A stretch of 64,000 nucleotides of DNA from Halanaerobiaceae bacterium ANBcel28. GTDB taxonomy: Bacteria > Bacillota > Halanaerobiia > Halanaerobiales > DTU029. Made by a program: the position numbers and the translations under genes. Positions within the stretch are counted from its first letter, which is position 1; the number at the start of each line of letters is the position of its first letter. Where the stretch lies: the NCBI GenBank assembly GCA_037623315.1, contig JBBJJH010000001.1:77019-141018 (forward strand), written 5' to 3'. Shown in pieces: positions 15,239 through 40,892 of this stretch. The notes beneath the pieces were generated by a model that made no database searches, was not told where the DNA came from, and was given only the letters and a program-made list of their open reading frames with translations.

Positions 15239-15365
15239 TGCTTCTCACCCCTCTTTTTTTCAATTATATCATACATTTCTTATTATGTGTAATTTTTTTA
15301 CGATCAATACATGTTATAATGTATTTTTTTTACTACTCATTAGGTGCTAGTCGTATTTTAATATA

Positions 15366-15412
15366 CTATGCAAAACAGCCAGCCATTTATCACATAAACG
15401 GCTGACTGTTTC
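15366..15412 (-). terminator. rho-independent terminator downstream of ywbE
   Basis: Minus strand: AACAGTCAGCCGTTTATGTGATAAATGGCTGGCTGTT followed by TTTGCAT. Confidence 0.6.
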
Positions 15413-15448
15413 TCCTGATCTAGCAAACGCAAACTATAAGATCTTTTT

Positions 15449-15649
15449 CTATTTAATTTCTTTAACCCTACCAACAATTCCATCCTCCAGCATTACTTTA
15501 ATTCCATGTGGATGACTGGAAGAATTAGTGAGTATCTTTTTAACCACTCCTTCAGTAAGATTACCACTTCTTTGATCCTGCTTTTTTACAATCTTTACTG
15601 TATCACCTATTTTAATGTCACTTCTATTTCTACCATCCATTTGCTTCAC
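15449..15649 (-). CDS. ywbE: YwbE family small protein (DUF2196)
   Basis: 66 aa; ...GDTVKIVKKQDQRSGNLTEGVVKKILT...GIKVMLEDGIVGRVKEI matches the YwbE signature. Confidence 0.65.
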   Translation of the reverse strand: MKQMDGRNRSDIKIGDTVKIVKKQDQRSGNLTEGVVKKILTNSSSHPHGIKVMLEDGIVGRVKEIK

Positions 15650-15706
15650 CCTTTTCTCTCTCTTCCATTATTCTATTGGAATTAATTTAAATCTAATATA
15701 CACTTT

Positions 15707-15736
15707 TTCTATAATAATTATAAGTAATAATAAGAT
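15707..15736 (-). promoter_or_regulatory. consensus sigma-A promoter of ywbE, near-identical copy of the jetA promoter module
   Basis: Minus strand: TTGACA (15736..15731), 18-bp spacer, TATAAT (15712..15707). Confidence 0.7.
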
Positions 15737-15838
15737 ATCGTGTCAAGGAAAGACAGAAAGCCCCAGTAAGTATTATTCCTTATTACTGGGGAACTTATTT
15801 TAAATAGACCACACATATACTTTAGTAATAATAAATTT

Positions 15839-16663
15839 TCATCCCAGTAATAGAAAATATCCAAGAACTATTAAACCCAAGACTATACGATACCAGCCAA
15901 AGGCCTTAAAGTCATTGTTCTTAATATAGACCAATAAGAAGCGGATAGCTAATATAGAAACAGCAAAGGCTACAAACATACCAAGTAATAAAAAGGCCAA
16001 TTCCATGCCAGTAAAATTAAAGCCAAACTTAAGAAGTTTTAAGGCACTGGCACCAAACATCACTGGTATAGAGAGAAAAAATGAATACTCAGCAGCTATA
16101 TGACGTGATGTACCAAAGATAATCGCGCCTATAATAGTTGCTCCTGAACGAGAAGTTCCTGGTATTAAAGCTAAGACCTGAAAAAGACCAATACAGAAAG
16201 CTGTTCTATAGGATAATTCTGCAAATTTGTTTACTCTGCTAATCATATATTTATTACGATTTTCTATAAGGATAAAAAGTATCCCATAAACAATCAACAA
16301 GATTGCAACAGTCTGATAATTATATAAATGCTCATTTAAAATATCATCAAATAAAAGACCAATAACTGCTGCTGGAATAACCCCTACTATTACCTTATAC
16401 CATATTTGTATTGTTTCCACTTTTTCCTCTTTAGTTTTTTTAGAAGTGAAGGGATTTAATTTATGAAAAAAAAGAAAAACCACTGCCATAATAGCACCTA
16501 ATTGAATAAGTACTAAAAACATCTCTTTAAATTCTGCAGATGCATTTAAGTGGATAAATTCATCGACTAATATCATATGACCAGTACTACTGACAGGAAG
16601 CCATTCTGTAATCCCTTCTACAATTCCTATAATAACAACTTTTAATAATTCCAATAAAACCAT
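15839..16663 (-). CDS. uppP: undecaprenyl-diphosphatase
   Basis: [21 protein letters not shown] signature; start moved to the MVLLELL ATG (AGGGGGT SD 8 nt upstream). Confidence 0.85.
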
Positions 16664-16788
16664 AGTATTTTTACCCCCTGATAGAGTTAATTTATACATC
16701 TTTCTATAATATATATGAAAGTGACTTATGTAATATCTATTCTAAGAAAGGATAATGAAGTATATTGAAATTATTAAATAATATCTTT

Positions 16789-16857
16789 TTACAATGAAAA
16801 ACAGCCAGCCATTATCCCTATATAATGACTAGCTGTTAAGAATTTTTATTGCTTTAT
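16789..16857. terminator. bidirectional rho-independent terminator
   Basis: AACAGCCAGCCATTAT-ccct-ATAATGACTAGCTGTT flanked by T-runs on both strands. Confidence 0.65.
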
Positions 16858-18306
16858 ATCAAAGTAGCCTAAGGTACCTTCAAATTCAAGAATTATATCG
16901 TCTCCATCTCTTGGCAAATATCCTAATTCCCATTCAATCTCATCCAATATGGGTTGCAAACTTTCATGAACATTAGTAACTCGTACTTTAAACTCATTTA
17001 TTGGAGAATACTCAGGAAAATGTTCATTAAAATCTAAATCAAATTCAAGTCCTATATTTAATAAAGAACTATCTAAGTCAGTATCATAGATCAGCATTTG
17101 CCCATCATTATGTTTGAAATTAAAATACAAATTATTAATACTTAATTCAGGGACTTCAGCATCCCACATACCTACTCCTATATCTAGACCCATATCAAAT
17201 AACAGCATATATGCTAACATTACTTCCGCTTCTCCAGTAAAGATAGTATTAAGTCCTTCTAGTGCAAGATTAATTTCTCCTTCAGGAAAAACAAAACTAT
17301 AAGGATCATCATCATATACTCCTGATAAATCAAATTCTAATAATAATTTATCAATACTATATTCTCCAGTACTACTGGCTTCTCCGAAAGATAGATCTTC
17401 GAATAGTAATTTTGAATTACCTTCCATTTCATAATTAATAAATTCTAAGTTATTAAAGCTATTACCACTGTAGTTTACAATTACAGAGTAGTTTGTATCT
17501 AAAAAAGTATTTGTAAAATTCATTCCATCAAAAATAATTTGCTTATTATTACTATCATGTCTAATATCAACACTCATTTTATCTATAGTGCTTAATTCAG
17601 CTAGCTGAGGAAAAGCAAATTCAGCTAATTCTTCTAATTCAGCATAATACATATCCATTCCCATAATTTTTATAGATAATTGCTGATCTTCATCTAGTAT
17701 AAGATCAGGATTCAACTCCATATCTTTATGTATATAACCATCAAATTCTAAATCAATCTCTTCAATACTAAATTCCGGTTCTTCTCTATATGAAGAAACT
17801 CTTACTCCTTTCATATTAAGAAAGAATTTATCTATTTCATCAATATCTCCTTCTGTTTCTAATATCTCTTTAAGCTTAGCATATGTACTGGAAAGAGTGA
17901 CTTTGTCTATGTCTAAACGATCCCACCTATCTTCAAACACAAGATCACTAATGACAATTTCACCAAAAGCAGCGTTAACTGTCAAATCTGAATAATCAAC
18001 ACTCATATCTAAAGTTCTTTCTATATCTTTAATATTAGTAGATAATATTTCTTCAACTTGATCTACTAAATTATTACTAATTATGATGTTAATTATAAAA
18101 AAAGCAGTAAAAACAAGAAGTAGTGCAACGCCTGTTTTAACAAGCTTCCTTTTCTTCCCTTTTTTCTTCAAACTCTCTTCCTCTTTTGAACTTTGCTCCA
18201 ATTGATTTCCACAATCTCTACAAAAATTATCATTAGTTTTAACTTCATTTCCACAATATGAACAATACGGCATTTTAATATTCCCCCTCCTAGTGTTATC
18301 ATACAT
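16846..18306 (-). CDS. zinc-ribbon domain membrane-anchored protein, unknown function
   Basis: N-terminal CSYCGNEV...CRDCGN zinc ribbon, a lysine-rich linker, one transmembrane helix, then a long acidic extracytoplasmic domain. Confidence 0.5.
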   Translation of the reverse strand: MYDNTRRGNIKMPYCSYCGNEVKTNDNFCRDCGNQLEQSSKEEESLKKKGKKRKLVKTGVALLLVFTAFFIINIIISNNLVDQVEEILSTNIKDIERTLDMSVDYSDLTVNAAFGEIVISDLVFEDRWDRLDIDKVTLSSTYAKLKEILETEGDIDEIDKFFLNMKGVRVSSYREEPEFSIEEIDLEFDGYIHKDMELNPDLILDEDQQLSIKIMGMDMYYAELEELAEFAFPQLAELSTIDKMSVDIRHDSNNKQIIFDGMNFTNTFLDTNYSVIVNYSGNSFNNLEFINYEMEGNSKLLFEDLSFGEASSTGEYSIDKLLLEFDLSGVYDDDPYSFVFPEGEINLALEGLNTIFTGEAEVMLAYMLLFDMGLDIGVGMWDAEVPELSINNLYFNFKHNDGQMLIYDTDLDSSLLNIGLEFDLDFNEHFPEYSPINEFKVRVTNVHESLQPILDEIEWELGYLPRDGDDIILEFEGTLGYFDIKQ

Positions 18307-21660: not shown

Positions 21661-22473
21661 TCACTCTACATTATCCCTTGGTGTATAATGTCTTTTTAAC
21701 CATTTACACAAACCATCTAAACCAGGAAAGAGTACTCTTTCTGTAATATTTGCCTGATCAAGTTTGTCCCTTATTTCCCACTTTAATTCTTTGGGAACTA
21801 GTATCTTCTTATATAAACCAGGATGCTTTTCTAACCACTCGTCTAATACTAGCTTGGGATCTGATAATACAGAAAAGAGAGCATACTGGTTGATTATTCT
21901 GCCACTTGAAGAAGGTGGCTCAAAAAAGAATAGAACTGGATCTTCAGAAACATTATTTAGTTCTATAAAATTATCAATCTCTTTATTTAACATCTCTGCT
22001 GTAAAACTATCTGCTGCTTCATTGTTTAATATGTTCAAAAGTCTTGCTGGTAATAATTTTTTTACTTCAACAAAATTAATACACCAGATAACACCATCTC
22101 TATCAAATTGATCTATATCTTTTGTTGCAAAATGCAATGCTACATAGGGCGAATACGTCCAATCTAGTAATCTTGTGGGCAAACCGTGATGTTGTGCTAT
22201 AGATAGATAATTCCAGAAACCCATTTCTCCTGTAAAAGAAGAACTTGAATATTTTATAAAGTTCCTCATTAAACTTTTTTCTAGAAATTCATACTCATCA
22301 CAAATAAGTTTTAGACTTGTTTTTAATTCATGTTTCTTATCAGACATTCCCCTATATACAAACTTAGAACGATACCTAGATATTTCCTCATTCCAACTAT
22401 CACTAAATAATTGTTCCTGGAGATCTCCCCAACTCTTAACCTCAATAACTTTGTCCATCAAATCCCCTTTCAT
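21661..22473 (-). CDS. FRG domain protein
   Basis: FVYRGMSD...AQHHGLPTRLLDWTYSPYVALHFA matches the FRG domain signature. Confidence 0.6.
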   Translation of the reverse strand: MKGDLMDKVIEVKSWGDLQEQLFSDSWNEEISRYRSKFVYRGMSDKKHELKTSLKLICDEYEFLEKSLMRNFIKYSSSSFTGEMGFWNYLSIAQHHGLPTRLLDWTYSPYVALHFATKDIDQFDRDGVIWCINFVEVKKLLPARLLNILNNEAADSFTAEMLNKEIDNFIELNNVSEDPVLFFFEPPSSSGRIINQYALFSVLSDPKLVLDEWLEKHPGLYKKILVPKELKWEIRDKLDQANITERVLFPGLDGLCKWLKRHYTPRDNVE

Positions 22474-26122: not shown

Positions 26123-29100
26123 TTAAGTAGAGATATTCTGCAAGTTTTGCTTATTAGCAATCAAGTTTAGATTTTCCCCTATAGTATTTAATTCTTTAAT
26201 TACTTCTTTTACCCTTTGACCGTCTTTTTCTGATTTTTTATCAAGGTAAATTTTCTTGATTTCATTCCATCTTTTTTCTTGTTCTGCTGACATTCTACTG
26301 CTAATTTCATAGAATTTTAGCAAACTAGCTTCTGCATGTGTTGCTAATGTCTGAGCATCATTGATATAGCTATTTTCTACTAATGCATCTATTTCCCCAT
26401 CATTCATAATAGAAACTACTTTTTCTACGATTTTATTCATATTTCTATAAGATCCTTGTAACTTAAATGGAGGTTCTGTTCTATATTCATCATTCTGAGA
26501 TGAAGAATATATATACTCCATATTTACCCGTAATATTTCATCCCTTATTTTAAGACAACTTCGTAAAACACTTAAAGCTTCTTCTATCTCTTCCTCAGTA
26601 TAAGTTCCACTTAAGTTAATCTCATCTCTATTTCCTGTGTTTACAATTTGAATTAGTTTATAGATATCCTCTGGCTCCTTCATATAAATAGCATTTAGAT
26701 GCTTATTTGAAGTAATTGAATTCTCTATATAACTTAACTTAAATGCTTCTTCATTTTCCCTCAACATATCTCCTAAATTATAAACATCTGCTCTGTTAGC
26801 TAGCATATCAGGAATCTTGAATTTATCTCCACTCTCAGTGTAAGGGTTACCGGCCATCACTACACAGACCTTTTTTCCTCTAAACTGATAGCTTTTACTA
26901 AGTCCCTTGTAAACACCTTCTATCTTTCTCTGCCCATCACATAAAGAGATAAACTTCTGTAAGAATTCTGGATTTGAATGCTGGATGTCATCTAAATAAA
27001 TCATCACATTATTCCCTATTTCAAAAGCTAAGTTTAGCTTTTTAATTTCCTCTCTAGCACTAGCATTCTCGGCCTCTGTAGGATCAAGAGAGCAAACTCC
27101 ATGACCAATAGTGGGGCAATTTATTTTAACTAGGAGCATATTCAATCTATTAGCAACATACTCTACAAGGGTTGTTTTCCCATAGCCTGGTGGAGAAATC
27201 ATCAAGAGCATTCCCATATTGTCCGTTCTCTTACTCTTTCCTGCTGTACCTATCTGTTTGGCTAAATTATCACCAATTAAGGGCAAATATACTTTATCAA
27301 TCAACTTACTACGAACAAATGATGTTAAAACTTTTGGTTTTAAATCTTCAAAATTAAGTTCCTTTTTAATAGTTCTAATCTTTTCAAACTTAAGTTTCTG
27401 AAACTCTTTATATAGAGGTATTATCTCATTTGTGAAATTATCCATTTTATCAAAATAGTCTACTAGATTTATTTTGTATTTACTATTATCAATTACTTTA
27501 TGGTTTCCAAACAACTTATTTATACTTATTTCTGATTTTTTATTAACAATTCTTCTTTTCGAATAATCCCCGAAGATCAAGATAGCCAATACTTCGTATA
27601 TATAATCACTAGAAGATATTTCTTTCTCATATAAATAAGATTGTAACCATTCATATATCAATATATATTTTCCCTCTATATCTTCATCTAATTTTTCTAT
27701 AGATTCTTTAAAATCCTTCTTCCCATTATTTGAAATCAGAAAGTTATTAAATTCTTCATATAATTTAGCTGCCTCTGCACTTAAAACAAAACTTTCATTC
27801 TGACTAATTTCTTCAGCCAGATATTTTGCTACTTTTTCACATGAACTACATTCTATCCACTTATTTTTTTCCAAAAAAGATCTTATTTCCTGACTTAATG
27901 CCGGGATAAACCCTAGAAGCAAATCCCTTTTGGAATGTTTAGAGATCAGATTTGCAGCCTTCAATCTTTTAGCCAGTTTTTCTTTTACTTCTTTTTCCAG
28001 GCCAATTTCCCAAAAAATATTAGCTATAGCTCTGATTTTAGGATTATATGAAGCCAGTTCTAATTCAAGGTAAGTGTCTACTATAGCACTTAGTATCTTT
28101 TGGCCATCATGGTCATGAACTCCTTTTGTATAGTATTCATTGGAGTGATTTTGAATATATTCTTTTACGATTTTCTCTAATTTCTGCTGACCCTCTTTAT
28201 ACAAGTCTTTTAAAGACTTATCTTCCTGATATCTTTTAAAAATATTGTATGCTAGAAATTCTCCACGATAGACATTGTCATTTTCAGATATAAGTTCTTG
28301 TTCCCAAACAGCTTGATAGTTAATAAAGTCTCCTCCATCTACCTTTTCCCAAAAATCTGTACCTGAAATATGAAAATAGAATCCATCTTCCTTTTTCAAT
28401 AAACTAAGTTCAGCCTTTTGATTGTTAACAAGAAATTGATTATTGCCAAATTTAATTGTATTTTCATCCAAAAATAGTTCATTTTTATCTTTAAGCTGTT
28501 TTACAGAAGATTCTTTTAGAGATTTTAACTTGTTTTCGATATCATCGGCTTTAGTACTATCCCCAAGTTCAATTAACTGTTCTATAATATCTCTTATTTT
28601 TTCTACCATAGGACTAGTAGAGAATAACTCAGTAATTGCACTTACTTCTTCCAAAGATTGTATTCTATTTTCTAAATTCTTCAATATTCTATCTGCTGCA
28701 TTACCTAAAGAAGCAATTTTTCTATTTTTCTTTTCAATTAACTGCTGTTTTTTCCCTTCAAATGTTGATATGATATCTTCCCTTTTTTCCGTTAACATTA
28801 CCAGGAAGTCATCAAAATCAGAAAACTCACTTTCTAATTCATCTATCTGAATTATTATTTTTGACATATATTCTTCAGTTTTTGCCACAGTATTAGATAA
28901 ATCTAAATGGTTAGAGACAGCATGAGTTAAAAGATTTAGTTTAGAATAAAATTCTGCTTCTTTTTCTTTAGAATTCAAATTATCTATTATATTTTTTAAT
29001 TTAGCCTTACTCTGATTTAAGTTTGAAAAAAGCACAGAAATCTTATCAATAATCTCAGCCGTTTTTGTTGAATCTTCGATTTTTAAATTATTCACTATAT

Positions 29101-31021
29101 CAATTAACATTTCTAATTCTTCTGATGCACTAATTATTTTTTCATTTAATGACTTTCCATCAACAACCTTTTCAACTTCATCTAATTCATTCTCTATTGT
29201 CTTTACCTTTTCAATATAAGGTTTTAGGCTTTCATCTTTTAATAAGAAATCTACACATTCTTTTGCTAACTTATCATTTTTTTCTTTAAGCATATTTGCT
29301 AAGTTTTCTACTTTATCTATATCAACAAATTGTAAGTCTCTTAAACCGGCTATTTCTCCTCTTAATTTTCTTACCTCTATCAAGTATTTTACAAAATCAT
29401 TAATGCTTTCAAAAGAAGTGTAGCCTATTGATTTACTAATATCTTCTACTTTTTCTTTAACTTGATTGTATTGTTCTGCTGTAATATTTTTTATCTTGTT
29501 AACCTTATCAAACTCTTTTATAGCGACTGCCCCTGCTTCTTTAATCTTTAACAGAGATTCTTTGATATTTAAAGCTTCCTCATTGTCAATCCAAAAATAA
29601 TTGTCTATAATTTTTTCTGCATCTTTAACTATGTCAATATATAAACCATAATAGCTATCATCTTTTTGTAATAAGTTATATAAGGAATAACAATCAGCCA
29701 TAAACCTAACTATCTCTTTATTGCCAATATTATATAAAAAATCATTCTTTTTTTCTTCTTTTTTTACTAATATCTTATCAGCAAAACTAGTCTGCCAGAT
29801 TTGTATGGTATGATTCCTTTTCGCTTCCTGTTCTGCTTTAAATACAAGCATCTCTCCATTATCAAAATGAGAATAACCATTACATATTAAAGGTGTCTCA
29901 ATATCCTGATGAATTATATTGTAATTATGAATATAGTATTCTCCTGTTTTTAAATCATAAAAAAAGTATTGATAATCTTCACCATTTATAGAAGCTTTTT
30001 TGTTTTGAAATACTACATTCTCATAATTTACTTCAAATTTTTTAAAACCTCCTGATTGTAGATAAATACCATCTGGGAAGATTATACCATGATCTTCTGG
30101 TAATGATACTACTGACTTTCCTATAGAATCAATTCTCTGTACTTCTTTAGTTTTTTCGTTAAAAACAAGATATCTATACTCATTTTCCTGATAAGGTTTT
30201 ATTTTTAGTAAAATAAGGTTTCCTACTATAGAGTAAAATATATTGGCATCATTAAGATTTTGATCTTTCTGTTCTACCTCTTCTTCATAAATTCCTTCTC
30301 CTGAATTTGTGTTATTTTCAATTTTTAAGGTTAATGTCCCAGCTATTGTTTCTACAAAGAGACGATCTTCAATGGATATATGAGGATGAGAACCAGCTAC
30401 CTGATCATCTCTTGTAGTCTCGATCCATTCGAGTTCTTGTTGACTAGGATAAGATATTTCATGACTATATCTATTTCCAAGGTATTCTATTGTATCGTCT
30501 TCTTTTAATACCCATTTGAAACTTTTTATATCATCTACTTTATCACCATTTTGAAAGACCATATAAATAAAATTATTTTTTTCATGGAATTTTGCAAAAA
30601 AGCTATCCTTATAGTAATTGTATAATTCTTTAAAATCACTTTTGAATTTTTCATTATCTATTAAAGAATAATCTTCCTTTACAAACCTATCTCCATTATA
30701 GCTATATATTGTAAAGACATCACTGAGTTCAAGTTCTGATTTTAAGCCTACATGCACATTGTATCCCAGAATAACTTTATTTCCTACTGGAACAATATCT
30801 CTAGTAATACAACTATTTTCTGTAACTATGGCCTCACTTTTCTTTAAACTATTTTTTATTTGACCATATATATCTACTCTTTTTTGATCTAATTCTTCTA
30901 ATTTATCTTTTAGAAGACTTGAGCCTTCATTTAATCGATTTCTAATGACATTATAGGAGCCAAAGCTTTCCTGCTTTTTCTCTTTGTTTAATTCTTTATC
31001 CATAACAATCCCCTTACTCAA
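26123..31021 (-). CDS. giant coiled-coil protein with C-terminal AAA_5 (MoxR/McrB/dynein-like) ATPase domain; function unknown
   Basis: Walker A LLMISPPGYGKTTLVEYVANRL; Walker B/sensor VMIYLDDIQHSNPEFLQ...KKVCVVMAGNPYTE. TTG at 31021 overlaps the flotillin gene by 8 bp; alternative ATG at 31003 has AAGGGGA SD. Confidence 0.6.
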   Translation of the reverse strand: MSKGIVMDKELNKEKKQESFGSYNVIRNRLNEGSSLLKDKLEELDQKRVDIYGQIKNSLKKSEAIVTENSCITRDIVPVGNKVILGYNVHVGLKSELELSDVFTIYSYNGDRFVKEDYSLIDNEKFKSDFKELYNYYKDSFFAKFHEKNNFIYMVFQNGDKVDDIKSFKWVLKEDDTIEYLGNRYSHEISYPSQQELEWIETTRDDQVAGSHPHISIEDRLFVETIAGTLTLKIENNTNSGEGIYEEEVEQKDQNLNDANIFYSIVGNLILLKIKPYQENEYRYLVFNEKTKEVQRIDSIGKSVVSLPEDHGIIFPDGIYLQSGGFKKFEVNYENVVFQNKKASINGEDYQYFFYDLKTGEYYIHNYNIIHQDIETPLICNGYSHFDNGEMLVFKAEQEAKRNHTIQIWQTSFADKILVKKEEKKNDFLYNIGNKEIVRFMADCYSLYNLLQKDDSYYGLYIDIVKDAEKIIDNYFWIDNEEALNIKESLLKIKEAGAVAIKEFDKVNKIKNITAEQYNQVKEKVEDISKSIGYTSFESINDFVKYLIEVRKLRGEIAGLRDLQFVDIDKVENLANMLKEKNDKLAKECVDFLLKDESLKPYIEKVKTIENELDEVEKVVDGKSLNEKIISASEELEMLIDIVNNLKIEDSTKTAEIIDKISVLFSNLNQSKAKLKNIIDNLNSKEKEAEFYSKLNLLTHAVSNHLDLSNTVAKTEEYMSKIIIQIDELESEFSDFDDFLVMLTEKREDIISTFEGKKQQLIEKKNRKIASLGNAADRILKNLENRIQSLEEVSAITELFSTSPMVEKIRDIIEQLIELGDSTKADDIENKLKSLKESSVKQLKDKNELFLDENTIKFGNNQFLVNNQKAELSLLKKEDGFYFHISGTDFWEKVDGGDFINYQAVWEQELISENDNVYRGEFLAYNIFKRYQEDKSLKDLYKEGQQKLEKIVKEYIQNHSNEYYTKGVHDHDGQKILSAIVDTYLELELASYNPKIRAIANIFWEIGLEKEVKEKLAKRLKAANLISKHSKRDLLLGFIPALSQEIRSFLEKNKWIECSSCEKVAKYLAEEISQNESFVLSAEAAKLYEEFNNFLISNNGKKDFKESIEKLDEDIEGKYILIYEWLQSYLYEKEISSSDYIYEVLAILIFGDYSKRRIVNKKSEISINKLFGNHKVIDNSKYKINLVDYFDKMDNFTNEIIPLYKEFQKLKFEKIRTIKKELNFEDLKPKVLTSFVRSKLIDKVYLPLIGDNLAKQIGTAGKSKRTDNMGMLLMISPPGYGKTTLVEYVANRLNMLLVKINCPTIGHGVCSLDPTEAENASAREEIKKLNLAFEIGNNVMIYLDDIQHSNPEFLQKFISLCDGQRKIEGVYKGLSKSYQFRGKKVCVVMAGNPYTESGDKFKIPDMLANRADVYNLGDMLRENEEAFKLSYIENSITSNKHLNAIYMKEPEDIYKLIQIVNTGNRDEINLSGTYTEEEIEEALSVLRSCLKIRDEILRVNMEYIYSSSQNDEYRTEPPFKLQGSYRNMNKIVEKVVSIMNDGEIDALVENSYINDAQTLATHAEASLLKFYEISSRMSAEQEKRWNEIKKIYLDKKSEKDGQRVKEVIKELNTIGENLNLIANKQNLQNIST

Positions 31022-32987
31022 TTATTGATGTTATTGGTTCATTTTCTATCCCCAATTTTTGAGCTTTATCCAATATTGATCTTCTAAGTGGATTTGGGCT
31101 ACCATTAGAATCATTCATGTATTTCATTATAGCACCTGAAATTGTCAGATCCCTAATTGTTTTGGAATCAAGATTCATATTACCCATTAGAGTTTTAAGT
31201 TGTTTTTTAAAATCTTCTAAACCCCCATTAAAAAATGTATCTTTTACATCTCCTATAACAGCAGAGTTGTTTACTAATCTATCAACTTGCTTTCCTCTAG
31301 TGATTGAATTTACAAGTTTATCAAAGAAGATTGAGTCTCCACCTACAATATCAACATTAGCATTTGATAGACCGTCTTTAATTATTTGCGCTTGTGCTTT
31401 TGCTATCTCTGCTTCAATATTTATTCTAGCTAATTCTACTTCTTTATCTTTATTTAGTTTTAGTTTGAACTCTTCATGTTCTTTTCCTACAGAATCTAAG
31501 TTTTTCATAGCTTCTGCTTTTTTATTAATTCCTTCAGCTTCTGCTTCTGCTTGCATGGTTTCAACCTTAGCTCTAGAAGCACCTTCTGCTTCAATGGCCT
31601 CAGCTTTTGCTTGCATAACTCTTGCTTCAGAAATTCCTTGAACTGCTGCATCCTCGATATTAGCTTCTGCCATTATTTTTATGGATTCTGCTTTTTGACG
31701 TGAAGTTTTTAATTCAGTCTCAGCAAGTATAAGTTCTTTTTCTGCTAACTCTTGAGCACTTCTCCTATCTGCTTCTGCCAGTTTTACTTTATCAATAGAT
31801 CTAGCTTCTGCTTCTCCTTCTGCTTTAGTAATACTGACTGTCTTTTCTCTGTTAGCTGCAGCAATATCTTTTGTATCTTTTACTTTTTCTTCTTCTTCAG
31901 CTACTGATTTTTCTACTATTACTCTCTCGCGTATTACTTCTTGCATACCTTTTTTCTCTTTTTCTATTTCTTTTTCTTTTTCAATTTCAGCAAGGGATAC
32001 TACTCTTTCTCTTTCTGTTACTTCTAGTTCTGTTTGCTTTCTTGCTCTTTCTGCTTCTACACCTTCGGTTCCTTCTTTAGCTATTCTTGCAATTAATATC
32101 TGTCTATCTTTATTTTCCTCAGCTATTGAAACTTCTTCATCTGTTTTTATTCTTACTCTTTCTGATTTTAGTCGCTCTTCCTCATCTACTATTATTATTT
32201 GTGAATTTTCCCTTGATTTTAGATTAGCTATTTCTCTCTTTTGTTTTTCTTCTGCTTCAGCTTGTTGTCGCTCAAGTTCCAGGATAGCTTCTTTAGCACT
32301 TACATCCTGTTTTACTATAGTTTTTTCTTTATTTCTTCTAACTTCATTTGCTCTAATGGCTTGTTCTGCAGTTAATTCGATAATTTTCTTTATACCTTCT
32401 GAATCAAGAACATTGTCTTCATCTAGGTTCTCCACTTTTGTTTGTTCTAAATAGTCAATAGCAGCATCATCCAAAACATAACCATTAAGATCAGTTCCTA
32501 TAACCTGTAAAATCTCTTCTTTAAAAGTATCTCTTTCAGTATATAGTTGAGTAAATTCGAATTTCTTACCTACTGTTTTTAGGGCTTCAGAAAATTTAGC
32601 ATCAAAGAAGCGCATTAAAGTATCAGTATCTGAAGCTTTTTTTGTTCCTAAAGACTTAGCTACTCTTAGTACGTCCTTTTCTGTATGATTTACCCTAACA
32701 AAAAAGGCTACCTTAATATCAGCTCTTAAATTATCTTTACAAATCAAACCATCTTTACCGCTTCTCTCGATTTCTACTCTTTTTATAGAGACATCCATCT
32801 TCTCCCAGTGATGCAAGATAGGTACAATCCAGGTTCCCGTAAAGGATACTTTTGAACCTCCTATTCCGTTTTTTACAATAGCAGTTCCTTGTTCTACCTT
32901 CTTGTAGAATAAAAGCAATAACAATGGAAAGGCTACAAAAAGTAGTAAAACAACCCCTATTACAACATAGATTATCATTTCTAACAT
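31014..32987 (-). CDS. flotillin family SPFH/band-7 protein
   Basis: N-terminal TM, SPFH core (...KDNLRADIKVAFFVRV...), then a long EA-rich coiled coil; AAGGGGGA SD. Confidence 0.8.
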   Translation of the reverse strand: MLEMIIYVVIGVVLLLFVAFPLLLLLFYKKVEQGTAIVKNGIGGSKVSFTGTWIVPILHHWEKMDVSIKRVEIERSGKDGLICKDNLRADIKVAFFVRVNHTEKDVLRVAKSLGTKKASDTDTLMRFFDAKFSEALKTVGKKFEFTQLYTERDTFKEEILQVIGTDLNGYVLDDAAIDYLEQTKVENLDEDNVLDSEGIKKIIELTAEQAIRANEVRRNKEKTIVKQDVSAKEAILELERQQAEAEEKQKREIANLKSRENSQIIIVDEEERLKSERVRIKTDEEVSIAEENKDRQILIARIAKEGTEGVEAERARKQTELEVTERERVVSLAEIEKEKEIEKEKKGMQEVIRERVIVEKSVAEEEEKVKDTKDIAAANREKTVSITKAEGEAEARSIDKVKLAEADRRSAQELAEKELILAETELKTSRQKAESIKIMAEANIEDAAVQGISEARVMQAKAEAIEAEGASRAKVETMQAEAEAEGINKKAEAMKNLDSVGKEHEEFKLKLNKDKEVELARINIEAEIAKAQAQIIKDGLSNANVDIVGGDSIFFDKLVNSITRGKQVDRLVNNSAVIGDVKDTFFNGGLEDFKKQLKTLMGNMNLDSKTIRDLTISGAIMKYMNDSNGSPNPLRRSILDKAQKLGIENEPITSIIE

Positions 32988-33038
32988 TCAACTTCCCCCT
33001 TATGTTATATTAAAAAACATGTTAAGAAGAATTCTTTT

Positions 33039-33758
33039 CTATATTTTCTCCTTAACAATATATAAATCTTTATCTTTTTCTTTAGATACCACAATTGTTT
33101 GGCTGCCTTTTAAAATCATTTCTCCTAAAGATTTTACATTTATTACAATAGGATACCCATCAAGATCAATTTCGCCTTGAGCAATATTATCTGAATTCAA
33201 ATTAGACTTTAAAACACAGCTTTTGCCGATAATTCTTACATTACTCCTATCTTCCATAGAAGCAAAAAAGTTTTTAAATGGTTCTGTAATTCCTTTTGCT
33301 ATAAAAAGAGAAATTATTAAGTTTTGCATAAAAATTAAAACTCCAAGAATAGAATTTGGTGAAATATTTATGTAGTAAGTTAACATACTTAAAACCCACA
33401 ATACAAGAATTAAGATAGTAGAGTATATCATTAAAGGAACAGCACCTATATTAAGAAAGTTTAATATTTTATACAGGTAATACTTTATTGAGACATTCTT
33501 TTTCTTTTGCTGTTTCGATTCTACACCCCCATCAAAGTACTTATCAGATGAGTAGTCTAGATCTGCGTCTAGATCTAAGTCACAATCTAAATCTAAGTCA
33601 CAATCTAGTTCAAGATCTAGATCTAAACCTAGATCTAAATCAAATAGATCAAAAGAAAAGAATCCAAGGATTATTAAGAGCCAATAAGATATTAGAAGAG
33701 ATAAAAAAACTGAAGGAATTAAATTGATACCTGTAAAAGCATATTGAAAATACTCCAT
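33039..33758 (-). CDS. NfeD-like membrane protein (YuaF/YqeZ-type, C-terminal OB fold) carrying a (DL)n repeat
   Basis: Membrane helices plus C-terminal VRIIGKSCVLK...GEIDLDGYPIVINVKSLGEMILKGSQTIVV OB-fold; conserved NfeD-flotillin gene order. Confidence 0.6.
   Translation of the reverse strand: MEYFQYAFTGINLIPSVFLSLLISYWLLIILGFFSFDLFDLDLGLDLDLELDCDLDLDCDLDLDADLDYSSDKYFDGGVESKQQKKKNVSIKYYLYKILNFLNIGAVPLMIYSTILILVLWVLSMLTYYINISPNSILGVLIFMQNLIISLFIAKGITEPFKNFFASMEDRSNVRIIGKSCVLKSNLNSDNIAQGEIDLDGYPIVINVKSLGEMILKGSQTIVVSKEKDKDLYIVKEKI
33556..33650 (-). repeat. hexanucleotide tandem repeats encoding DLDLGLDLDLELDCDLDLDCDLDLDADLD
   Basis: Direct reading: agatct/aagtca/caatct... units repeated about 15 times. 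Confidence 0.7.
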
Positions 33759-33876
33759 GATTGATTTCTCCTTTCTATGGATAATCAGATACTAATAAAC
33801 TTTACTCTTTAAGCCGCTTTCATAATTAAAAGTTCAGCGAAAGTACACTCTGTAAGAAGAAAATACATTTTTATCT

Positions 33877-34674
33877 TCAAGCTGAATAGTCATTTATTCT
33901 TTTAGCCATCGTCCTTAACTCAGCAAGACTTCTTTCAAATTCTCTTTTGCTTTGATTTGAAGATGTTTTTAAGCTTCCTAATTTTATTTTCATATTATCA
34001 ATATCTGTAATTGCTTTTTCATTAATAGAGATATATTTGTCTACAGAATTTAACTCATTGATGAGCATATCTTTTTTATTTCTTAAAGAGAGTAACTCCT
34101 CTGTCATCTCTTTACTTAAATCACTTTTTTTCTCCAAAGTATCTATTCTAGAATCTATATATTTTACATTAATATCATCTATAGATTGATAAACGTTTTT
34201 AACTCTCTCTAAATTTTCTAATATATTATAATAAACATCTTCAGTTACACTCATAAATTTATTATAGCTTAATTCTTCTTGATCAAATTTTACATCCAGT
34301 ATATTTTTAAATGTTTCAAACTTCTCTACTACTCTAAGTAATTGATTTAATGCCAGACGAGCACTTTCACGATAATATTTAGAATCTGTAAAATTAGTAA
34401 TTTGTGATTTTAATTCTTCAATAAATACTACTATGTCATTATTATAAGTTATCATATCTTTTGAAAGCTTTATCTCTTGAAAATCTTTTACTTCTAGACT
34501 TTCTTCTTTATTATCCATAGAATTTAAACTCAATTGTTTAAAATTTATGATTTCAACTAATAAAGCCCCTATTATTATTCCAAAGCCAAGTTGCTGAAAA
34601 GAACTTGTAAAATAAATTATCTCTATGGCTATTATAAAAGGAATTGCTTTTTTTATAATCTTTTTGATATCCAT
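33877..34674 (-). CDS. membrane-anchored coiled-coil protein, possibly first gene of the NfeD-flotillin operon
   Basis: Two N-terminal TM helices then coiled coil; 118 bp upstream of nfeD on the same strand. Confidence 0.4.
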   Translation of the reverse strand: MDIKKIIKKAIPFIIAIEIIYFTSSFQQLGFGIIIGALLVEIINFKQLSLNSMDNKEESLEVKDFQEIKLSKDMITYNNDIVVFIEELKSQITNFTDSKYYRESARLALNQLLRVVEKFETFKNILDVKFDQEELSYNKFMSVTEDVYYNILENLERVKNVYQSIDDINVKYIDSRIDTLEKKSDLSKEMTEELLSLRNKKDMLINELNSVDKYISINEKAITDIDNMKIKLGSLKTSSNQSKREFERSLAELRTMAKRINDYSA

Positions 34675-34862
34675 TATATTCTCCTAACTTATATAAGTCT
34701 TTTAAATAATTTTTCTCTTTATTTATCTTTAAATTTCTCTTAGAAATACCTCTTATAATAAGACTTTAAATACAATGAATCCCAGATAGGCTATATATAA
34801 TATATTCCACATATATAAAACAATGAATGTTTTTGCTTTAAAATTCCTTTTTTATAATTTAA

Positions 34863-34901
34863 CATGTAAAAATATAACTGTCAAGTATATTTTTACATGT
34901 A
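34863..34901. promoter_or_regulatory. perfect 15-bp inverted repeat (candidate operator)
   Basis: ACATGTAAAAATATA-actgtcaag-TATATTTTTACATGT. Confidence 0.45.
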
Positions 34902-34974
34902 GTTTGGCATTTTTAGTCTTGCGTAGAATAACTACTCAATTATCTAATGATTTTTTTATCTAAGCGTAGAAAAA

Positions 34975-35015
34975 ACTAGCTACCTTTTATTCTAAAAAGA
35001 TAGCTAGTTTTTATT
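34975..35015. terminator. bidirectional terminator-like hairpin
   Basis: AAAAACTAGCTA-ccttttattctaaaaaga-TAGCTAGTTTTTATTT. Confidence 0.55.
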
Positions 35016-35108
35016 TGAAAAGAATCCCTTTAATATTATAGAATTAAGATTCTAAAATATGTTAATAATAGATATAAGAAATTAAGATATCAAAAGGTGG
35101 TATATTTA

Positions 35109-35564
35109 ATGAAAAAAGATAGAGTTTATAATGGATTTATAGCAGGTTTTTTTGCCAGTATCGTTCCCACAGTGATTAATAATGGGGCTATAGCTCTTGA
35201 CCTTAGTACATTTCTTTGGTCAGATTATATGGGGTTGTTTATAATGGGACAAGAACCAGATGGATTTATTCAAACACTTTTCTTTTTTGCAGCAATGTAT
35301 GTATTCATGGGTCTTTTAGGAGCTATTTTTTCTTTTATTCTCCCCTATATTTCCAGTCAACACATTTTCTTCAAAGGAGTACTATTCGGGATTACTACCT
35401 GGTATATTTTACTTTCTATACCTTATATTTTACAAATATCAGGTATAGATCATGCTCCTTTTAAGACAGTCGTAACTCATATGCTTAGTGTATCTTTATG
35501 GAGTATTGCTATGGTTTTAATACTTAAAAAGATAGATAAAAAGATTGAAGATATCAATGTTTAA
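35109..35564 (+). CDS. membrane protein, unknown function
   Basis: Start at ATG 35109 with AAAGGTGG SD (track start is a GTG inside the SD). Confidence 0.5.
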   Translation: MKKDRVYNGFIAGFFASIVPTVINNGAIALDLSTFLWSDYMGLFIMGQEPDGFIQTLFFFAAMYVFMGLLGAIFSFILPYISSQHIFFKGVLFGITTWYILLSIPYILQISGIDHAPFKTVVTHMLSVSLWSIAMVLILKKIDKKIEDINV

Positions 35565-35697
35565 TTATATAAAAGATAGGTCCAGTATAAAGATATTCCA
35601 TTTTTCTCCACTAGTCACTTGGTTACTTAATTCAATTGCTCTATTATGACCTATATCAGGATCTTACTTACTTCTTAATGAAAAGTATAATAAACAT

Positions 35698-35730
35698 TTC
35701 GGGAAGATAATATTTCTTCCCGAAATGTTA
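35698..35730. terminator. bidirectional terminator
   Basis: TTTCGGGAAGA-taatattt-CTTCCCGAAA. Confidence 0.65.
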
Positions 35731-35767
35731 TAAATCAAAAAGTAAAATTATAAGTCTACAAGAAGTT

Positions 35768-37087
35768 TTATAAGCTAACTCCCTGTTTCCTTAACTCCTC
35801 CTGAAGATCTTGAACATCTACATCTCTAGCAGTAGTATTACTTTTTATAGCTACTCCTGCTGCTGTACCTGCAGCCTGACCTGTAGCCATACATGCAGAT
35901 ATAGCACGTACAGAGCTCTCTGCCATATGATCTGTACTAATACATCTTCCCGCTAACAGTAACTGTTCAATATTTACTGGCAATAATGATCGATAGGGGA
36001 TGCCATATTCCTTATCTAAGTCAACTACATAAACATGATCATCCCAGGTTCCTGTTGGAGATAGAATATCATAGACTCTAGGATAAAGGGCAATATTATC
36101 TTCAAACATTTTTTGACTATCTATATCTTCTTCTGTCAAACGATAGTCCCCTTTAATTCTTCTGCTATCCCGATAACCTATTGAAGGTGCAATGGAGGCG
36201 AGTTCAGCTTTTTCAAATCCAGGTAGATAGTCTCTCATAAAGTTAAATAATTTCATAACTCGTTCACGAGCCAGCACTTCTCCTTTTGTTATGTCATCTG
36301 CGTTAGTAGGATCTAACTTATAAGCATTACAAAAGTTGATATAAGTAATCTGCCCGCCTTCTGTTAATCTTCCCATAGGAAAACCCATTCTTTTATATCC
36401 CATATCAATGACACCCTCTGCAACTTTCTCATGGTATATATCATAATAATATTGGATCCCTTTTTCGTCTAATATTTCCTTAACTTTTTTGCTATTAACT
36501 CCAGCAAGTCTAAAATTAACTGTCCCTGGTTGTACCAGACCATCATTATCACGACCTTGTTCATAAGGAACACCTGCTCTTGCTGCAATATCTCCGTCTC
36601 CAGTACAATCAATAACTACATCGGACATTAAAGCTTCAAAGCCTGACTTGCTTGAACTTATTACTCCTTTAATAATATTATCTTCCACAATAACATCAGA
36701 TACCCTTGTGTGTAAACGAAGCCATACCCCCTCTTCTTCCATCTTCTTATCTAAAAAGACTTTCAGATATTCACTGGAAAAACGATGTGGGTCCATATCT
36801 GTTCTGATATCATCTGAGCGATCATACTCTTTTCTGTACTCATCTTCTATTTCTTTATAAATACCAGTCACCTGATAGGGATGCTTCCATAAGAAATGAT
36901 TACAGGTTTCTACATAAGAAGCAGTTATATTACCGCCTAAAAAGCCATTGTTTTCTATTAATGCCACCTTTATTCCCTGTCTGGCAGCCGCAATAGCTGC
37001 ACCAATTCCAGCTGGACCACCACCACAAACAATTAGATCAAATTTTTTCTTTATTGGTATTTCTCTGTTCATTGATAACTTTTGCAT
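35768..37087 (-). CDS. FAD-dependent oxidoreductase
   Basis: DLIVCGGGPAGIGAAIAAARQG dinucleotide-binding motif. Confidence 0.75.
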   Translation of the reverse strand: MQKLSMNREIPIKKKFDLIVCGGGPAGIGAAIAAARQGIKVALIENNGFLGGNITASYVETCNHFLWKHPYQVTGIYKEIEDEYRKEYDRSDDIRTDMDPHRFSSEYLKVFLDKKMEEEGVWLRLHTRVSDVIVEDNIIKGVISSSKSGFEALMSDVVIDCTGDGDIAARAGVPYEQGRDNDGLVQPGTVNFRLAGVNSKKVKEILDEKGIQYYYDIYHEKVAEGVIDMGYKRMGFPMGRLTEGGQITYINFCNAYKLDPTNADDITKGEVLARERVMKLFNFMRDYLPGFEKAELASIAPSIGYRDSRRIKGDYRLTEEDIDSQKMFEDNIALYPRVYDILSPTGTWDDHVYVVDLDKEYGIPYRSLLPVNIEQLLLAGRCISTDHMAESSVRAISACMATGQAAGTAAGVAIKSNTTARDVDVQDLQEELRKQGVSL

Positions 37088-38933: not shown

Positions 38934-40892
38934 TTAATGCTTTTTTGTTAAATGACTTACCTCAGTAATACTAGTAAGCACTAATTGTCTTTTATTATTA
39001 AATTCAGATACTTTCAACTTGCGTAATTCATACCATCTATTTTCTTCGAGCAGTGGAGCATTAGCATTTTCCCAGGATAGAAACTTGACAACTTTCCCTG
39101 CCTTGGTTTTTAATAATCCTACTTGTTTTATCTTTGAACTATGTTCTTTCCAAAGAGTTTCAACTTTAGCTTTTATATCTATATATTCAGCAGTCTCTGT
39201 TGAATTACTGACTATTTTCTTTACTTTTATATAAGGTCGTATTTCTTTTATAAACGGTGATATATTATTTTCTTGACTTAGAATATGAAGATTTTTAGCT
39301 GTACGTGTCATAGCTACATAGAAGAGTCTTCTTTCTTCCTCAAGATGGTCCACTTTATTTATTTTGACTGTATCTAATAATTCGTTTTCCCTCGCTGCTT
39401 CTGGAAAGCTATGAGGACCTTTAGCAACTGCATGAACTAAGATTACATTATCTGCCTCACATCCCTTAGATTGATGAATAGAAAATACTGAAACAGCGTT
39501 TTTAGGTTTTCTTGATTGGTCTTTAGGATTATAATAATCATTAGATTTTCCTTGATAGGGTATTTTTTCTTTTCTTAAATAATTTTTTACTTTATCAAGA
39601 TAAGGAACAGCTTCATCATACCGACATAGAATCATAATATCCGATGGCTTAGAACCTTGTTTTAATAAATTTTTTAGCAAAATTAAAGTATATCTAGCAA
39701 GAAAATCTTTGTAGTTCAATTTCTTTTCTAAGATATGTAAAACGGGCCTTGAATCATTTTTATTATTAGCCCTTACTTTTTTCTTAATTTGATTTTTATT
39801 ATTTGAAATTAATGAATTTCCTGCATCCAGTATTGTAGCTGGACACCTATAGTTATCAGTTAAATATGTTTTTGCTGCCTGTCCAAAATAATTTTCAAAC
39901 TTGATAAAATATTTTGGTTCTGAACCCTGAAAAGAATAAATACTTTGCCAATCATCACCTACACAGAATAAGTTCATATTTGAACCTTTTGTAAAAAAAT
40001 TTTTAATAAACTTAATATGAGCTAGGGATACATCTTGAAACTCATCAACTAGCATATGATCGTATTCTTTATAATACTTTTCTGGCTTCTTTTTTAATAT
40101 ATCAATAGACTTATAAATCATATCATTGAAATCAAGCTTTTGATTTTTTAATAAATATAAGTGATATTTCTCATATAGTATTTTTGCGCTTAATCCAAAG
40201 TAATATTGACTTTCATTATTTTTATTTAAAAGTTTCTCTATTTCTTCTACCTTAATATTATTCTTTTTAGCAAGATCTATAAACATTATGAAATTATCCA
40301 GCAAAGTAAAATTATTAATTGTCATCTTAGTAATTAACTCTGTATCGTCTTCAAAAATTGAATTATTCAATTCTTCATTATGATAATATCTGAAAAACTT
40401 AAAGTAATAATTTTGAAAATCAGCATCGTTATTAATTAAATGATTAATTTCATTTCTTATAAATTTTTTCATTTCATATGCTGTTACAATTGATTGGGGT
40501 TCCTTATATTCTTTTCTAATTATCTTGTAAGCAAAAGAATGAATAGTCCTTACTTCAACCTTATTTATACTAAATTGTCTTTTTAAGCGTATCTCCATTT
40601 CCTTAGCTGCTTTTTTTGAATATGTAATAGCTAATATCCTTTTAGGATCTATTCCTTCTTCAATAAGATATTTTATTCTATATGCTAGAACAGTGGTTTT
40701 ACCTGTCCCAGCTGCTGCAATAACTTGATTATATTTTTTATTTTTAATGACAGCCTCACATTGCTTAGGATTTAATGGATATTTGCCAGTCTTATAAAAA
40801 AGATCATGATACTCTCTAATCTTTCTGTCAATATATTCTTGTTCTTCATCTATAAATAAATTAAAAAAGCTTTTGATTATTCTTAATAACAT
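38934..40892 (-). CDS. UvrD/Rep-family helicase domain protein
   Basis: Walker A AAAGTGKTTVLAYRIKYL; DEFQD motif (LVDEFQDVSLAH). Confidence 0.75.
   Translation of the reverse strand: MLLRIIKSFFNLFIDEEQEYIDRKIREYHDLFYKTGKYPLNPKQCEAVIKNKKYNQVIAAAGTGKTTVLAYRIKYLIEEGIDPKRILAITYSKKAAKEMEIRLKRQFSINKVEVRTIHSFAYKIIRKEYKEPQSIVTAYEMKKFIRNEINHLINNDADFQNYYFKFFRYYHNEELNNSIFEDDTELITKMTINNFTLLDNFIMFIDLAKKNNIKVEEIEKLLNKNNESQYYFGLSAKILYEKYHLYLLKNQKLDFNDMIYKSIDILKKKPEKYYKEYDHMLVDEFQDVSLAHIKFIKNFFTKGSNMNLFCVGDDWQSIYSFQGSEPKYFIKFENYFGQAAKTYLTDNYRCPATILDAGNSLISNNKNQIKKKVRANNKNDSRPVLHILEKKLNYKDFLARYTLILLKNLLKQGSKPSDIMILCRYDEAVPYLDKVKNYLRKEKIPYQGKSNDYYNPKDQSRKPKNAVSVFSIHQSKGCEADNVILVHAVAKGPHSFPEAARENELLDTVKINKVDHLEEERRLFYVAMTRTAKNLHILSQENNISPFIKEIRPYIKVKKIVSNSTETAEYIDIKAKVETLWKEHSSKIKQVGLLKTKAGKVVKFLSWENANAPLLEENRWYELRKLKVSEFNNKRQLVLTSITEVSHLTKKH

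Follow-up and report, generated by a model that had tools for sequence, protein, structure and literature searches.

A four-gene locus in Halanaerobiaceae bacterium ANBcel28

We analyzed a stretch of 64,000 nucleotides (nt) from the genome of Halanaerobiaceae bacterium ANBcel28 (contig JBBJJH010000001.1; below, the window, numbered from its first letter), in which four consecutive, co-oriented open reading frames (ORFs) on the minus strand encode, in this order, a protein that we call GeneA, an NfeD-like membrane protein, a flotillin, and a giant AAA+ ATPase (Table 1). The coordinates of the four ORFs agree with those in an earlier note made from the DNA letters alone, and so do the gaps between them: geneA and the NfeD-like gene are separated by 118 nt, the NfeD-like and flotillin genes by 51 nt, and the flotillin and giant genes by at most 10 nt. 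The NfeD-like, flotillin and giant genes (the trio) recur together in distant bacteria, as described below, whereas geneA does not accompany them.

The note also had the start of the giant gene overlapping or abutting the flotillin stop, and both arrangements can be read at the junction: translation from a TTG at 31021 gives an 8-nt overlap, and translation from an ATG at 31003 leaves a gap of 10 nt. Read straight from the DNA, the junction is ...GAG TAA GGGGATTGTT ATG. A Shine-Dalgarno-like sequence, AAGGGGA, overlaps the TAA stop of the flotillin gene (31014-31016) and ends 5 nt 5' of the ATG. Because of this site, and because NCBI gives a length of 1626 amino acids (aa) for a 100% identical protein of Natronospora cellulosivora, ATG 31003 is a better start than TTG 31021. 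Since the Shine-Dalgarno-like site of the giant gene overlaps the flotillin stop, translational coupling of the two genes is likely. Residue numbers of the giant protein nevertheless follow the 1632-aa (TTG) numbering throughout.

Table 1. Genes of the locus, the flotillin-to-giant junction and the regions of the giant protein, in window coordinates
Feature	Position	Strand	Description
geneA	33877-34674	-	265 aa, lineage-specific; N-terminal hydrophobic segment(s) and coiled coil; adjoins the module
YqiJ/YuaF-type (NfeD2-like) membrane protein	33039-33758	-	239 aa; three hydrophobic segments and a C-terminal soluble domain
YqiK-type flotillin (SPFH2)	31014-32987	-	657 aa
Flotillin-to-giant junction	31004-31020	-	read straight from the DNA
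Giant soluble AAA+ ATPase	26123-31003	-	1626 aa from ATG 31003; 1632 aa if from TTG 31021
DUF3686 domain of the giant	29594-30913	-	residues 37-476; predicted N-terminal helix, then beta-propeller-like domain of about 26 strands
Spectrin-repeat-like helical rod of the giant	28478-29593	-	residues about 477-848, predicted; includes DUF7902
Middle region of the giant	27332-28477	-	residues about 849-1230; predicted small beta domain and helical domain, without family match
Single AAA+ module of the giant, with lid	26252-27331	-	residues about 1231-1590

Conservation of the NfeD-like, flotillin and giant genes

The giant protein has 1808 homologues, with 45-50% identity between phyla, and is carried by at least 593 of the 185,579 species in a GTDB-representative genome set. 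We fetched the neighbourhoods of the 80 best-scoring of these at least 593 loci, and called, clustered and mapped their ORFs; 67 loci were informative, each having at least 2.3 kb of DNA upstream of the giant gene. The earlier note had allowed that homologues of the giant might usually lie apart from flotillin and NfeD genes. This is not what we found: in 65 of the 67 informative loci, which span at least eight phyla, the giant gene came directly after a flotillin gene of the same orientation, and an ORF of the NfeD-like cluster preceded the flotillin gene in 57 of the 80. The loci come from Bacillota, Bacteroidota, Planctomycetota, Verrucomicrobiota, Kiritimatiellota, Omnitrophota and Desulfobacterota, among others, and even distant giants with only 31-37% identity, on the Pseudomonas fluorescens plasmid pQBR103, a Streptomyces plasmid and a Deinococcus plasmid, are found in the same trio. 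In their pairwise identities the three proteins vary together (r 0.70-0.75; giant with flotillin r 0.75, giant with NfeD-like protein r 0.74). Because a flotillin gene adjoins the giant gene in 65 of the 67 informative loci, the linkage is far beyond chance, and the NfeD-like, flotillin and giant genes form a real unit, closely linked and strongly conserved.

The two informative loci that have no flotillin gene upstream of the giant gene are L036 and L064. No intact giant ORF was called in L036, where the gene may be frameshifted or a pseudogene.

The flotillin and its NfeD-like partner

The earlier call of a flotillin was borne out. The N-terminal 228 aa of the 657-aa protein match Band_7/SPFH with 42.3 bits (E 1.1e-10), and E. 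coli YqiK shares 28% identity with it across 452 residues (E 9e-38), in an alignment that runs through residue 442. A predicted transmembrane (TM) segment at residues 8-26 is followed by the SPFH/Band_7 domain at residues 31-171 (window 32475-32897) and then by a long coiled coil rich in glutamate and alanine. The protein thus has what is expected of an SPFH2-type bacterial flotillin, namely the SPFH domain, an N-terminal anchor, a long coiled coil and an NfeD2 partner encoded upstream. The flotillins linked to giant genes, which share 55% mean identity among themselves, differ from E. coli YqiK in an extra C-terminal region that has no match in YqiK; a hidden Markov model (HMM) of the family aligns with YqiK only at positions 9-446 of 691.

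When the full-length flotillin was searched with, no match was obtained in Pfam, in NCBIfam or, by phmmer, in the PDB. This is apparently an artefact of the HMMER composition filter acting on the glutamate- and alanine-rich coiled coil; the filter would remove the Band_7 match, and automated annotation can therefore miss such flotillins. Two homologous flotillins, at 7698-9881 of locus L009 and 7942-10008 of locus L001, likewise have zero Pfam matches at full length.

The relationship of the NfeD-like protein is more distant, and the earlier call holds at the level of YqiJ and YuaF. BLASTP of the single sequence against E. coli YqiJ was not significant (E 0.14), and its score with the Pfam family YqiJ_N was 21.3 bits, below the cut-off of 23. 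It was the family HMM that gave the relationship: it matched E. coli YqiJ nearly end to end with 31.5 bits. YqiJ_N was matched by 12 of 41 members of the NfeD-like family (best E 3.6e-8), and the sole match of the family profile in the PDB was Bacillus subtilis YuaF (2k14), a weak one with E 0.69. Because of its three predicted TM segments, the family HMM match to YqiJ, the YqiJ_N matches and the weak match to YuaF, we assign the 239-aa protein on sequence grounds to the YqiJ/YuaF-type (NfeD2) partners in the sense of Hinderhofer et al. 2009 (PMC2636767). As in the NfeD2-SPFH2 pairs yqiJ-yqiK of E. coli and yuaF-floT of B. subtilis (PMC2636767), the NfeD-like gene lies directly 5' of the flotillin gene; unlike the present operon, the E. 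coli pair has no giant ATPase gene downstream.

Domains and motifs of the giant ATPase

About 1100 N-terminal residues of the giant protein had been thought to hold no recognizable motif. This view has to be given up, as residues 37-476 match DUF3686 (PF12458, described in Pfam as "ATPase involved in DNA repair") with E 2.4e-165 and residues 598-677 (window 28991-29230) match DUF7902 (PF25472) with E 3e-22. Archaea and eukaryotes have DUF3686 members too. The maximum Kyte-Doolittle value of the giant protein is 1.14 and no TM segment is found, from which we judge the giant protein to be soluble. Sequence comparison with the PDB gave matches at the level of the P-loop only.

We modelled the giant protein with AlphaFold2 (AF2) as two parts, each from an alignment of 43 sequences, and obtained predicted local distance difference test (pLDDT) values of 84.5 and 84.2. 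In the N-terminal model, a helix at residues 18-52 precedes about 26 strands at residues 58-410 that fall roughly into seven groups of four. Foldseek matched this part, with probabilities of 0.96-1.0 and low TM-scores, to IFT-A, Elp1, the clathrin terminal domain with its linker, Kelch and WD40 structures, all of which correspond to a beta-propeller followed by a helical region. The modelled N-terminal domain is thus propeller-like, as described by Ravi et al. (see below), and we place it in no specific family. A propeller followed by an alpha-helical rod is reminiscent of eukaryotic membrane-coat proteins; here the two would be paired with a MoxR/midasin-like motor. The middle region of the protein is predicted in the second model (pLDDT mostly above 85) as strands at model residues 11-54 and helices at model residues 61-383, and its invariant residues include G859, F863, Y918, R919, H969 and D970.

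The ATPase module near the C-terminus had been called a MoxR/dynein-like AAA_5 domain. By Pfam this fails narrowly, with an AAA_5 (PF07728) score of 20.2 bits below the cut-off of 22; the family that does pass is AAA (PF00004), with 28.7 bits against a cut-off of 21.2 on residues 1272-1392. The predicted fold sides with the earlier call: its two nearest neighbours are the MoxR ATPases CbbQ and NorQ, followed by midasin and dynein, and a hairpin at residues 1366-1379 of the AF2 model is inserted directly before the sensor-1 strand. Membership of the AAA+ module in the MoxR/midasin/dynein group is therefore supported by the model, despite the sub-threshold AAA_5 score.

The two motifs singled out before, SPPGYGKTT and VMAGNPYTE, are both present and invariant in homologues. 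The former is the Walker A motif (G1279-T1284, with PPGYGKTT invariant), and the latter is the sensor-1 motif with N1392. Walker B reads YLDD (YLDDIQH; D1344-D1345, window 26987-26992 on the minus strand), with an Asp-Asp instead of an Asp-Glu pair that is invariant across 15 diverse homologues. R1410 and R1526 are also invariant, and we regard the first as a candidate Arg finger and the second as a candidate sensor-2 residue.

The module is linked to PspA operons and belongs to a published operon class

A link of the locus to membrane repair had been suggested in the earlier note, and it is supported by the repeated occurrence of the module fused to PspA operons. In 23 loci, all from Bacteroidota, a divergently transcribed helix-turn-helix (HTH) gene for an XRE/S24-type repressor, a CesT/Tir-like gene (CesT_Tir_1, PF22550, E 3e-58) and a pspA gene (PF04012, E 6e-41) stand directly before the trio. 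Four Bacteroidota loci (L011 at 14980-17391, L021, L053 and L073) have, 3' of the giant gene, genes for a DUF4178 protein, a predicted lipoprotein rich in Ser, Arg and Tyr, and a DUF350 membrane protein; the DUF4178 and DUF350 families are both listed by Ravi et al. in PspA/polyamine operons (PMC11237479). On pQBR103 (L086, 980-14184), ten genes on the same strand encode, in order, YjfI, PspA, a rhomboid protein, DUF2491, DUF350 and DUF1190 proteins, a GspS-like (glutathionylspermidine synthase-like) protein, and the NfeD-like, SPFH and giant proteins. This 425-kb megaplasmid of P. fluorescens SBW25 is well studied and offers a convenient experimental system.

The pairing of NfeD and flotillin with a giant AAA_5 ATPase had been taken as undescribed. 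It is not new, because Ravi et al. 2024 (mSystems, PMC11237479; preprint 2020) describe the same architecture, including its abbreviated form, as a prediction from comparative genomics. They report operons of a YqiJ/YuaF protein, a band-7/flotillin protein and an ATPase with beta-propeller, coiled-coil and AAA+ regions, with or without PspA, and they tie this operon class to the phage-shock (PspA) envelope-stress network. According to the same paper, operons of the CesT/Tir-PspA type also encode three further proteins, including a 3-TM YqiJ/YuaF protein, and abbreviated operons, reduced to the flotillin, the YqiJ/YuaF protein and sometimes the ATPase, have a wider distribution and may act together with a PspA encoded elsewhere. 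The layout given for Dokdonia donghaensis in Table S3 of that paper (the ANH61663.1 neighbourhood) matches the full-form Bacteroidota loci found here.

The present locus has the features of this class: an SPFH flotillin with an N-terminal TM segment, an adjoining 3-TM YqiJ/YuaF-type protein, and a downstream ATPase with propeller, coiled-coil and AAA+ regions. It differs from the full form in lacking the CesT/Tir-PspA dyad and the HTH regulator, with geneA upstream in their place; the abbreviated forms of the paper allow for the absence of the dyad. Judged by its gene content, the locus is therefore very probably a PspA-less, abbreviated example of the operon class of Ravi et al.

The published account contains neither a structural classification of the AAA+ module nor experiments. 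What we add to it is the structural assignment of this module to the MoxR/midasin/dynein group together with the predicted spectrin-like rod, the linkage count of 65 in 67, the evidence against a role in defence that is given below, and tractable hosts such as P. fluorescens SBW25 with pQBR103 and Proteus mirabilis. Because the trio is strictly co-inherited across many phyla and hundreds of species and is often fused to PspA operons, the module offers a concrete handle on how bacterial flotillin scaffolds assemble, open and recycle, and on the role of the YqiK-type flotillins.

A possible ATP-driven remodeller of flotillin and PspA assemblies

Among the functions that we considered, the likeliest for the giant protein is that of an ATP-driven remodeller or chaperone of flotillin/PspA membrane assemblies in envelope stress, a proposal that we hold with about as much doubt as confidence. 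The NfeD-like protein, with its three TM segments, and the flotillin, anchored by its N-terminus, would form an SPFH scaffold on the cytoplasmic side of the membrane. Synthesis of the giant protein would keep pace with that of the flotillin, because the putative ribosome-binding site of the giant gene overlaps the flotillin stop, and the giant protein would make physical contact with the scaffold by docking on it through the beta-propeller and the spectrin-like rod. There, its one AAA+ module, which resembles MoxR and midasin and would presumably form a ring oligomer, would spend ATP to assemble, open or disassemble its presumed substrate, the flotillin scaffold. Where PspA is present, PspA polymers may be targets as well, or client proteins may be loaded or released. 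Upon a triggering stress, which we infer to act on the envelope, the result would be that the stressed membrane is maintained or repaired.

Several points weigh against this proposal. The window holds no PspA or CesT gene in any frame, as judged with family HMMs, so that the link to PspA is indirect at the present locus. The 80-locus set is biased to close relatives because it consists of the best-scoring of at least 593 loci. The Asp-Asp pair of Walker B, in place of Asp-Glu, could signify a slow or regulatory hydrolysis of ATP. Finally, no experimental study of the family was found in literature searches under DUF3686 and under "DNA repair ATPase" together with flotillin.

Known systems offer partial parallels. 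Vps4 is an AAA+ protein that disassembles ESCRT-III, whose polymers belong to the PspA superfamily, and in the HflK/C-FtsH complex an SPFH cage surrounds an AAA+ machine. As in both of these, an SPFH scaffold or a PspA-family polymer is coupled here, in this case genetically, to an AAA+ protein; the likeness is a functional analogy only. The giant protein differs from FtsH and Vps4 in that it lacks a protease domain, a TM anchor and an MIT domain, and its AAA+ module by predicted structure is not of the classical clade. An analogy to Vps4 was drawn by Ravi et al. for the PspA-linked ATPases (PMC11237479). With these parallels in mind we suggest, tentatively and with clearly less confidence than the broader remodelling role, that the giant protein may be a dedicated, non-proteolytic, ATP-driven machine for the assembly or disassembly of bacterial flotillin cages, comparable to Vps4 with ESCRT-III or to FtsH within HflK/C. 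If this is true, these lineages would have a specific motor for the active turnover of their flotillin microdomains, to which PspA-dependent repair would be coupled.

The alternative that fares best is a client-directed chaperone. The AAA+ module would then work as CbbQ, NorQ and RavA do, maturing, inserting or extracting a specific client protein or complex in a flotillin microdomain instead of remodelling the scaffold, and the flotillin and the NfeD-like protein would serve as a platform only. That the two top structural neighbours of the module are the MoxR chaperones CbbQ and NorQ speaks for this explanation, the synteny with flotillin fits it equally well, and a chaperone-like role in assembling membrane-linked complexes has been proposed by Ravi et al. 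(PMC11237479). The predicted fold of the module, with its insertion before sensor-1, is also closest to that of the MoxR/midasin/dynein group. In other respects the giant protein is a poor fit. MoxR chaperones are stand-alone proteins of about 300 aa whose usual companion is a VWA/MIDAS protein, whereas the giant protein, with 1626 aa, is about five times that size and has an extension of 1230 residues in front of its single AAA+ module, with Asp-Asp in Walker B. The 80 neighbourhoods showed neither a conserved client gene nor a VWA/MIDAS partner, and no VWA domain was found among the recurrent neighbour clusters or in the four proteins of the window; the recurrent families in the 80 loci were only the trio, PspA, CesT, HTH, DUF4178 and DUF350. 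We therefore consider a client-directed chaperone unlikely, if still a serious competitor of the proposed remodeller.

A resemblance to defence or abortive systems had also been pointed out in the earlier note. In an anti-phage system of this kind the flotillin scaffold would sense the perturbation of the membrane by a phage and the giant protein would be the effector or the switch. A large ATPase beside a membrane protein does loosely resemble some defence systems, the distribution over species is patchy, copies occur on megaplasmids, and a few flanking genes match PADLOC models. The operon itself tells otherwise: none of its four proteins matches PADLOC 2.0 (E < 0.01), and none of the 133 flanking genes points to a recurrent defence family, the maximum being three occurrences. 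In the window, most genes around the operon encode metabolic enzymes; a UvrD-like helicase and an FRG-domain protein are also encoded there. No copy of the giant gene was found in 50,697 phage records. The protein evolves slowly, which is untypical of defence genes: its mean identity between phyla is unusually high, at 49% over about 1600 aa, and in 1.84 billion representatives it forms only 610 clusters at 50% identity (nearly all full-length members have 1600-2000 aa). Its recurrent partner PspA is a stress protein. An anti-phage role is thus improbable, and we do not retain the likeness to defence systems.

That the giant protein is a DNA repair ATPase, the function under which it is named in Pfam and NCBI, is very improbable: the name seems to rest on P-loop similarity to RuvB (E about 1e-3 against the PDB) that spans about 45 residues near Walker A and scores 19.8 bits in NCBIfam, where the cut-off is 282, a Pfam search of the protein gave no DNA-binding or nuclease domain, its conserved partners are membrane proteins, its structural neighbours are MoxR, midasin and dynein instead of RuvB, and the literature searches above turned up no paper that backs the name. 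The label is misleading, and it hides the membrane context from readers of the annotation.

GeneA and the surroundings of the operon

The earlier note counted geneA as part of the system. GeneA has only 11 homologues, none with a Pfam domain and one of them from the named species Orenia marismortui, and was seen only in Halanaerobiales. It was not found beside the module in Orenia metallireducens or in any other locus examined. Because it is missing beside the module elsewhere and has few homologues, geneA is best regarded, by this comparison, as a lineage-specific neighbour and not as part of the conserved module.

In Orenia marismortui and in one metagenome-assembled genome, geneA lies 11 nt 3' of a TelA (PF05816) gene and 5' of the NfeD-like, flotillin and giant trio (L082 at 8814-10807 and L084 at 8811-10798). 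From this adjacency one might guess that GeneA is an XpaC-like partner of TelA, a guess to which Pfam lends no family support. GeneA may be another envelope-stress gene. A divergent PspA was also considered for GeneA and was ruled out, with an hhalign probability of 1.6%. No TelA gene or pseudogene was found by tblastn in the 1.1-kb gap upstream of geneA in the window. This gap (34675-35767) has a GC content of 26% and no minus-strand ORF; on the plus strand it contains an ORF that starts with GTG (35097-35564, 155 aa) and has no Pfam match.

A strong terminator-like hairpin on the minus strand at 35693-35729, with a 15-bp stem, six GC pairs and a T-rich tail, lies just 3' of a gene for an FAD-dependent oxidoreductase (35768-37087). 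This hairpin probably delimits, on its upstream side, the transcription unit of geneA and the trio. No terminator-like site was found on the minus strand inside the operon or 3' of it, and a promoter scan of this AT-rich DNA gave 54 sites where 54.7 were expected.

The GC content of the giant gene had been put at 20-25%, the lowest in the window. It is in fact 28.8%, which makes the giant gene only the eighth-lowest ORF in a window of 31.6% GC; the lowest is geneA, with 24.4%. The FRG-domain protein (21661-22473) and the UvrD-like helicase (38934-40892), both on the minus strand, are encoded within 13 kb of the operon and are not conserved beside it elsewhere.

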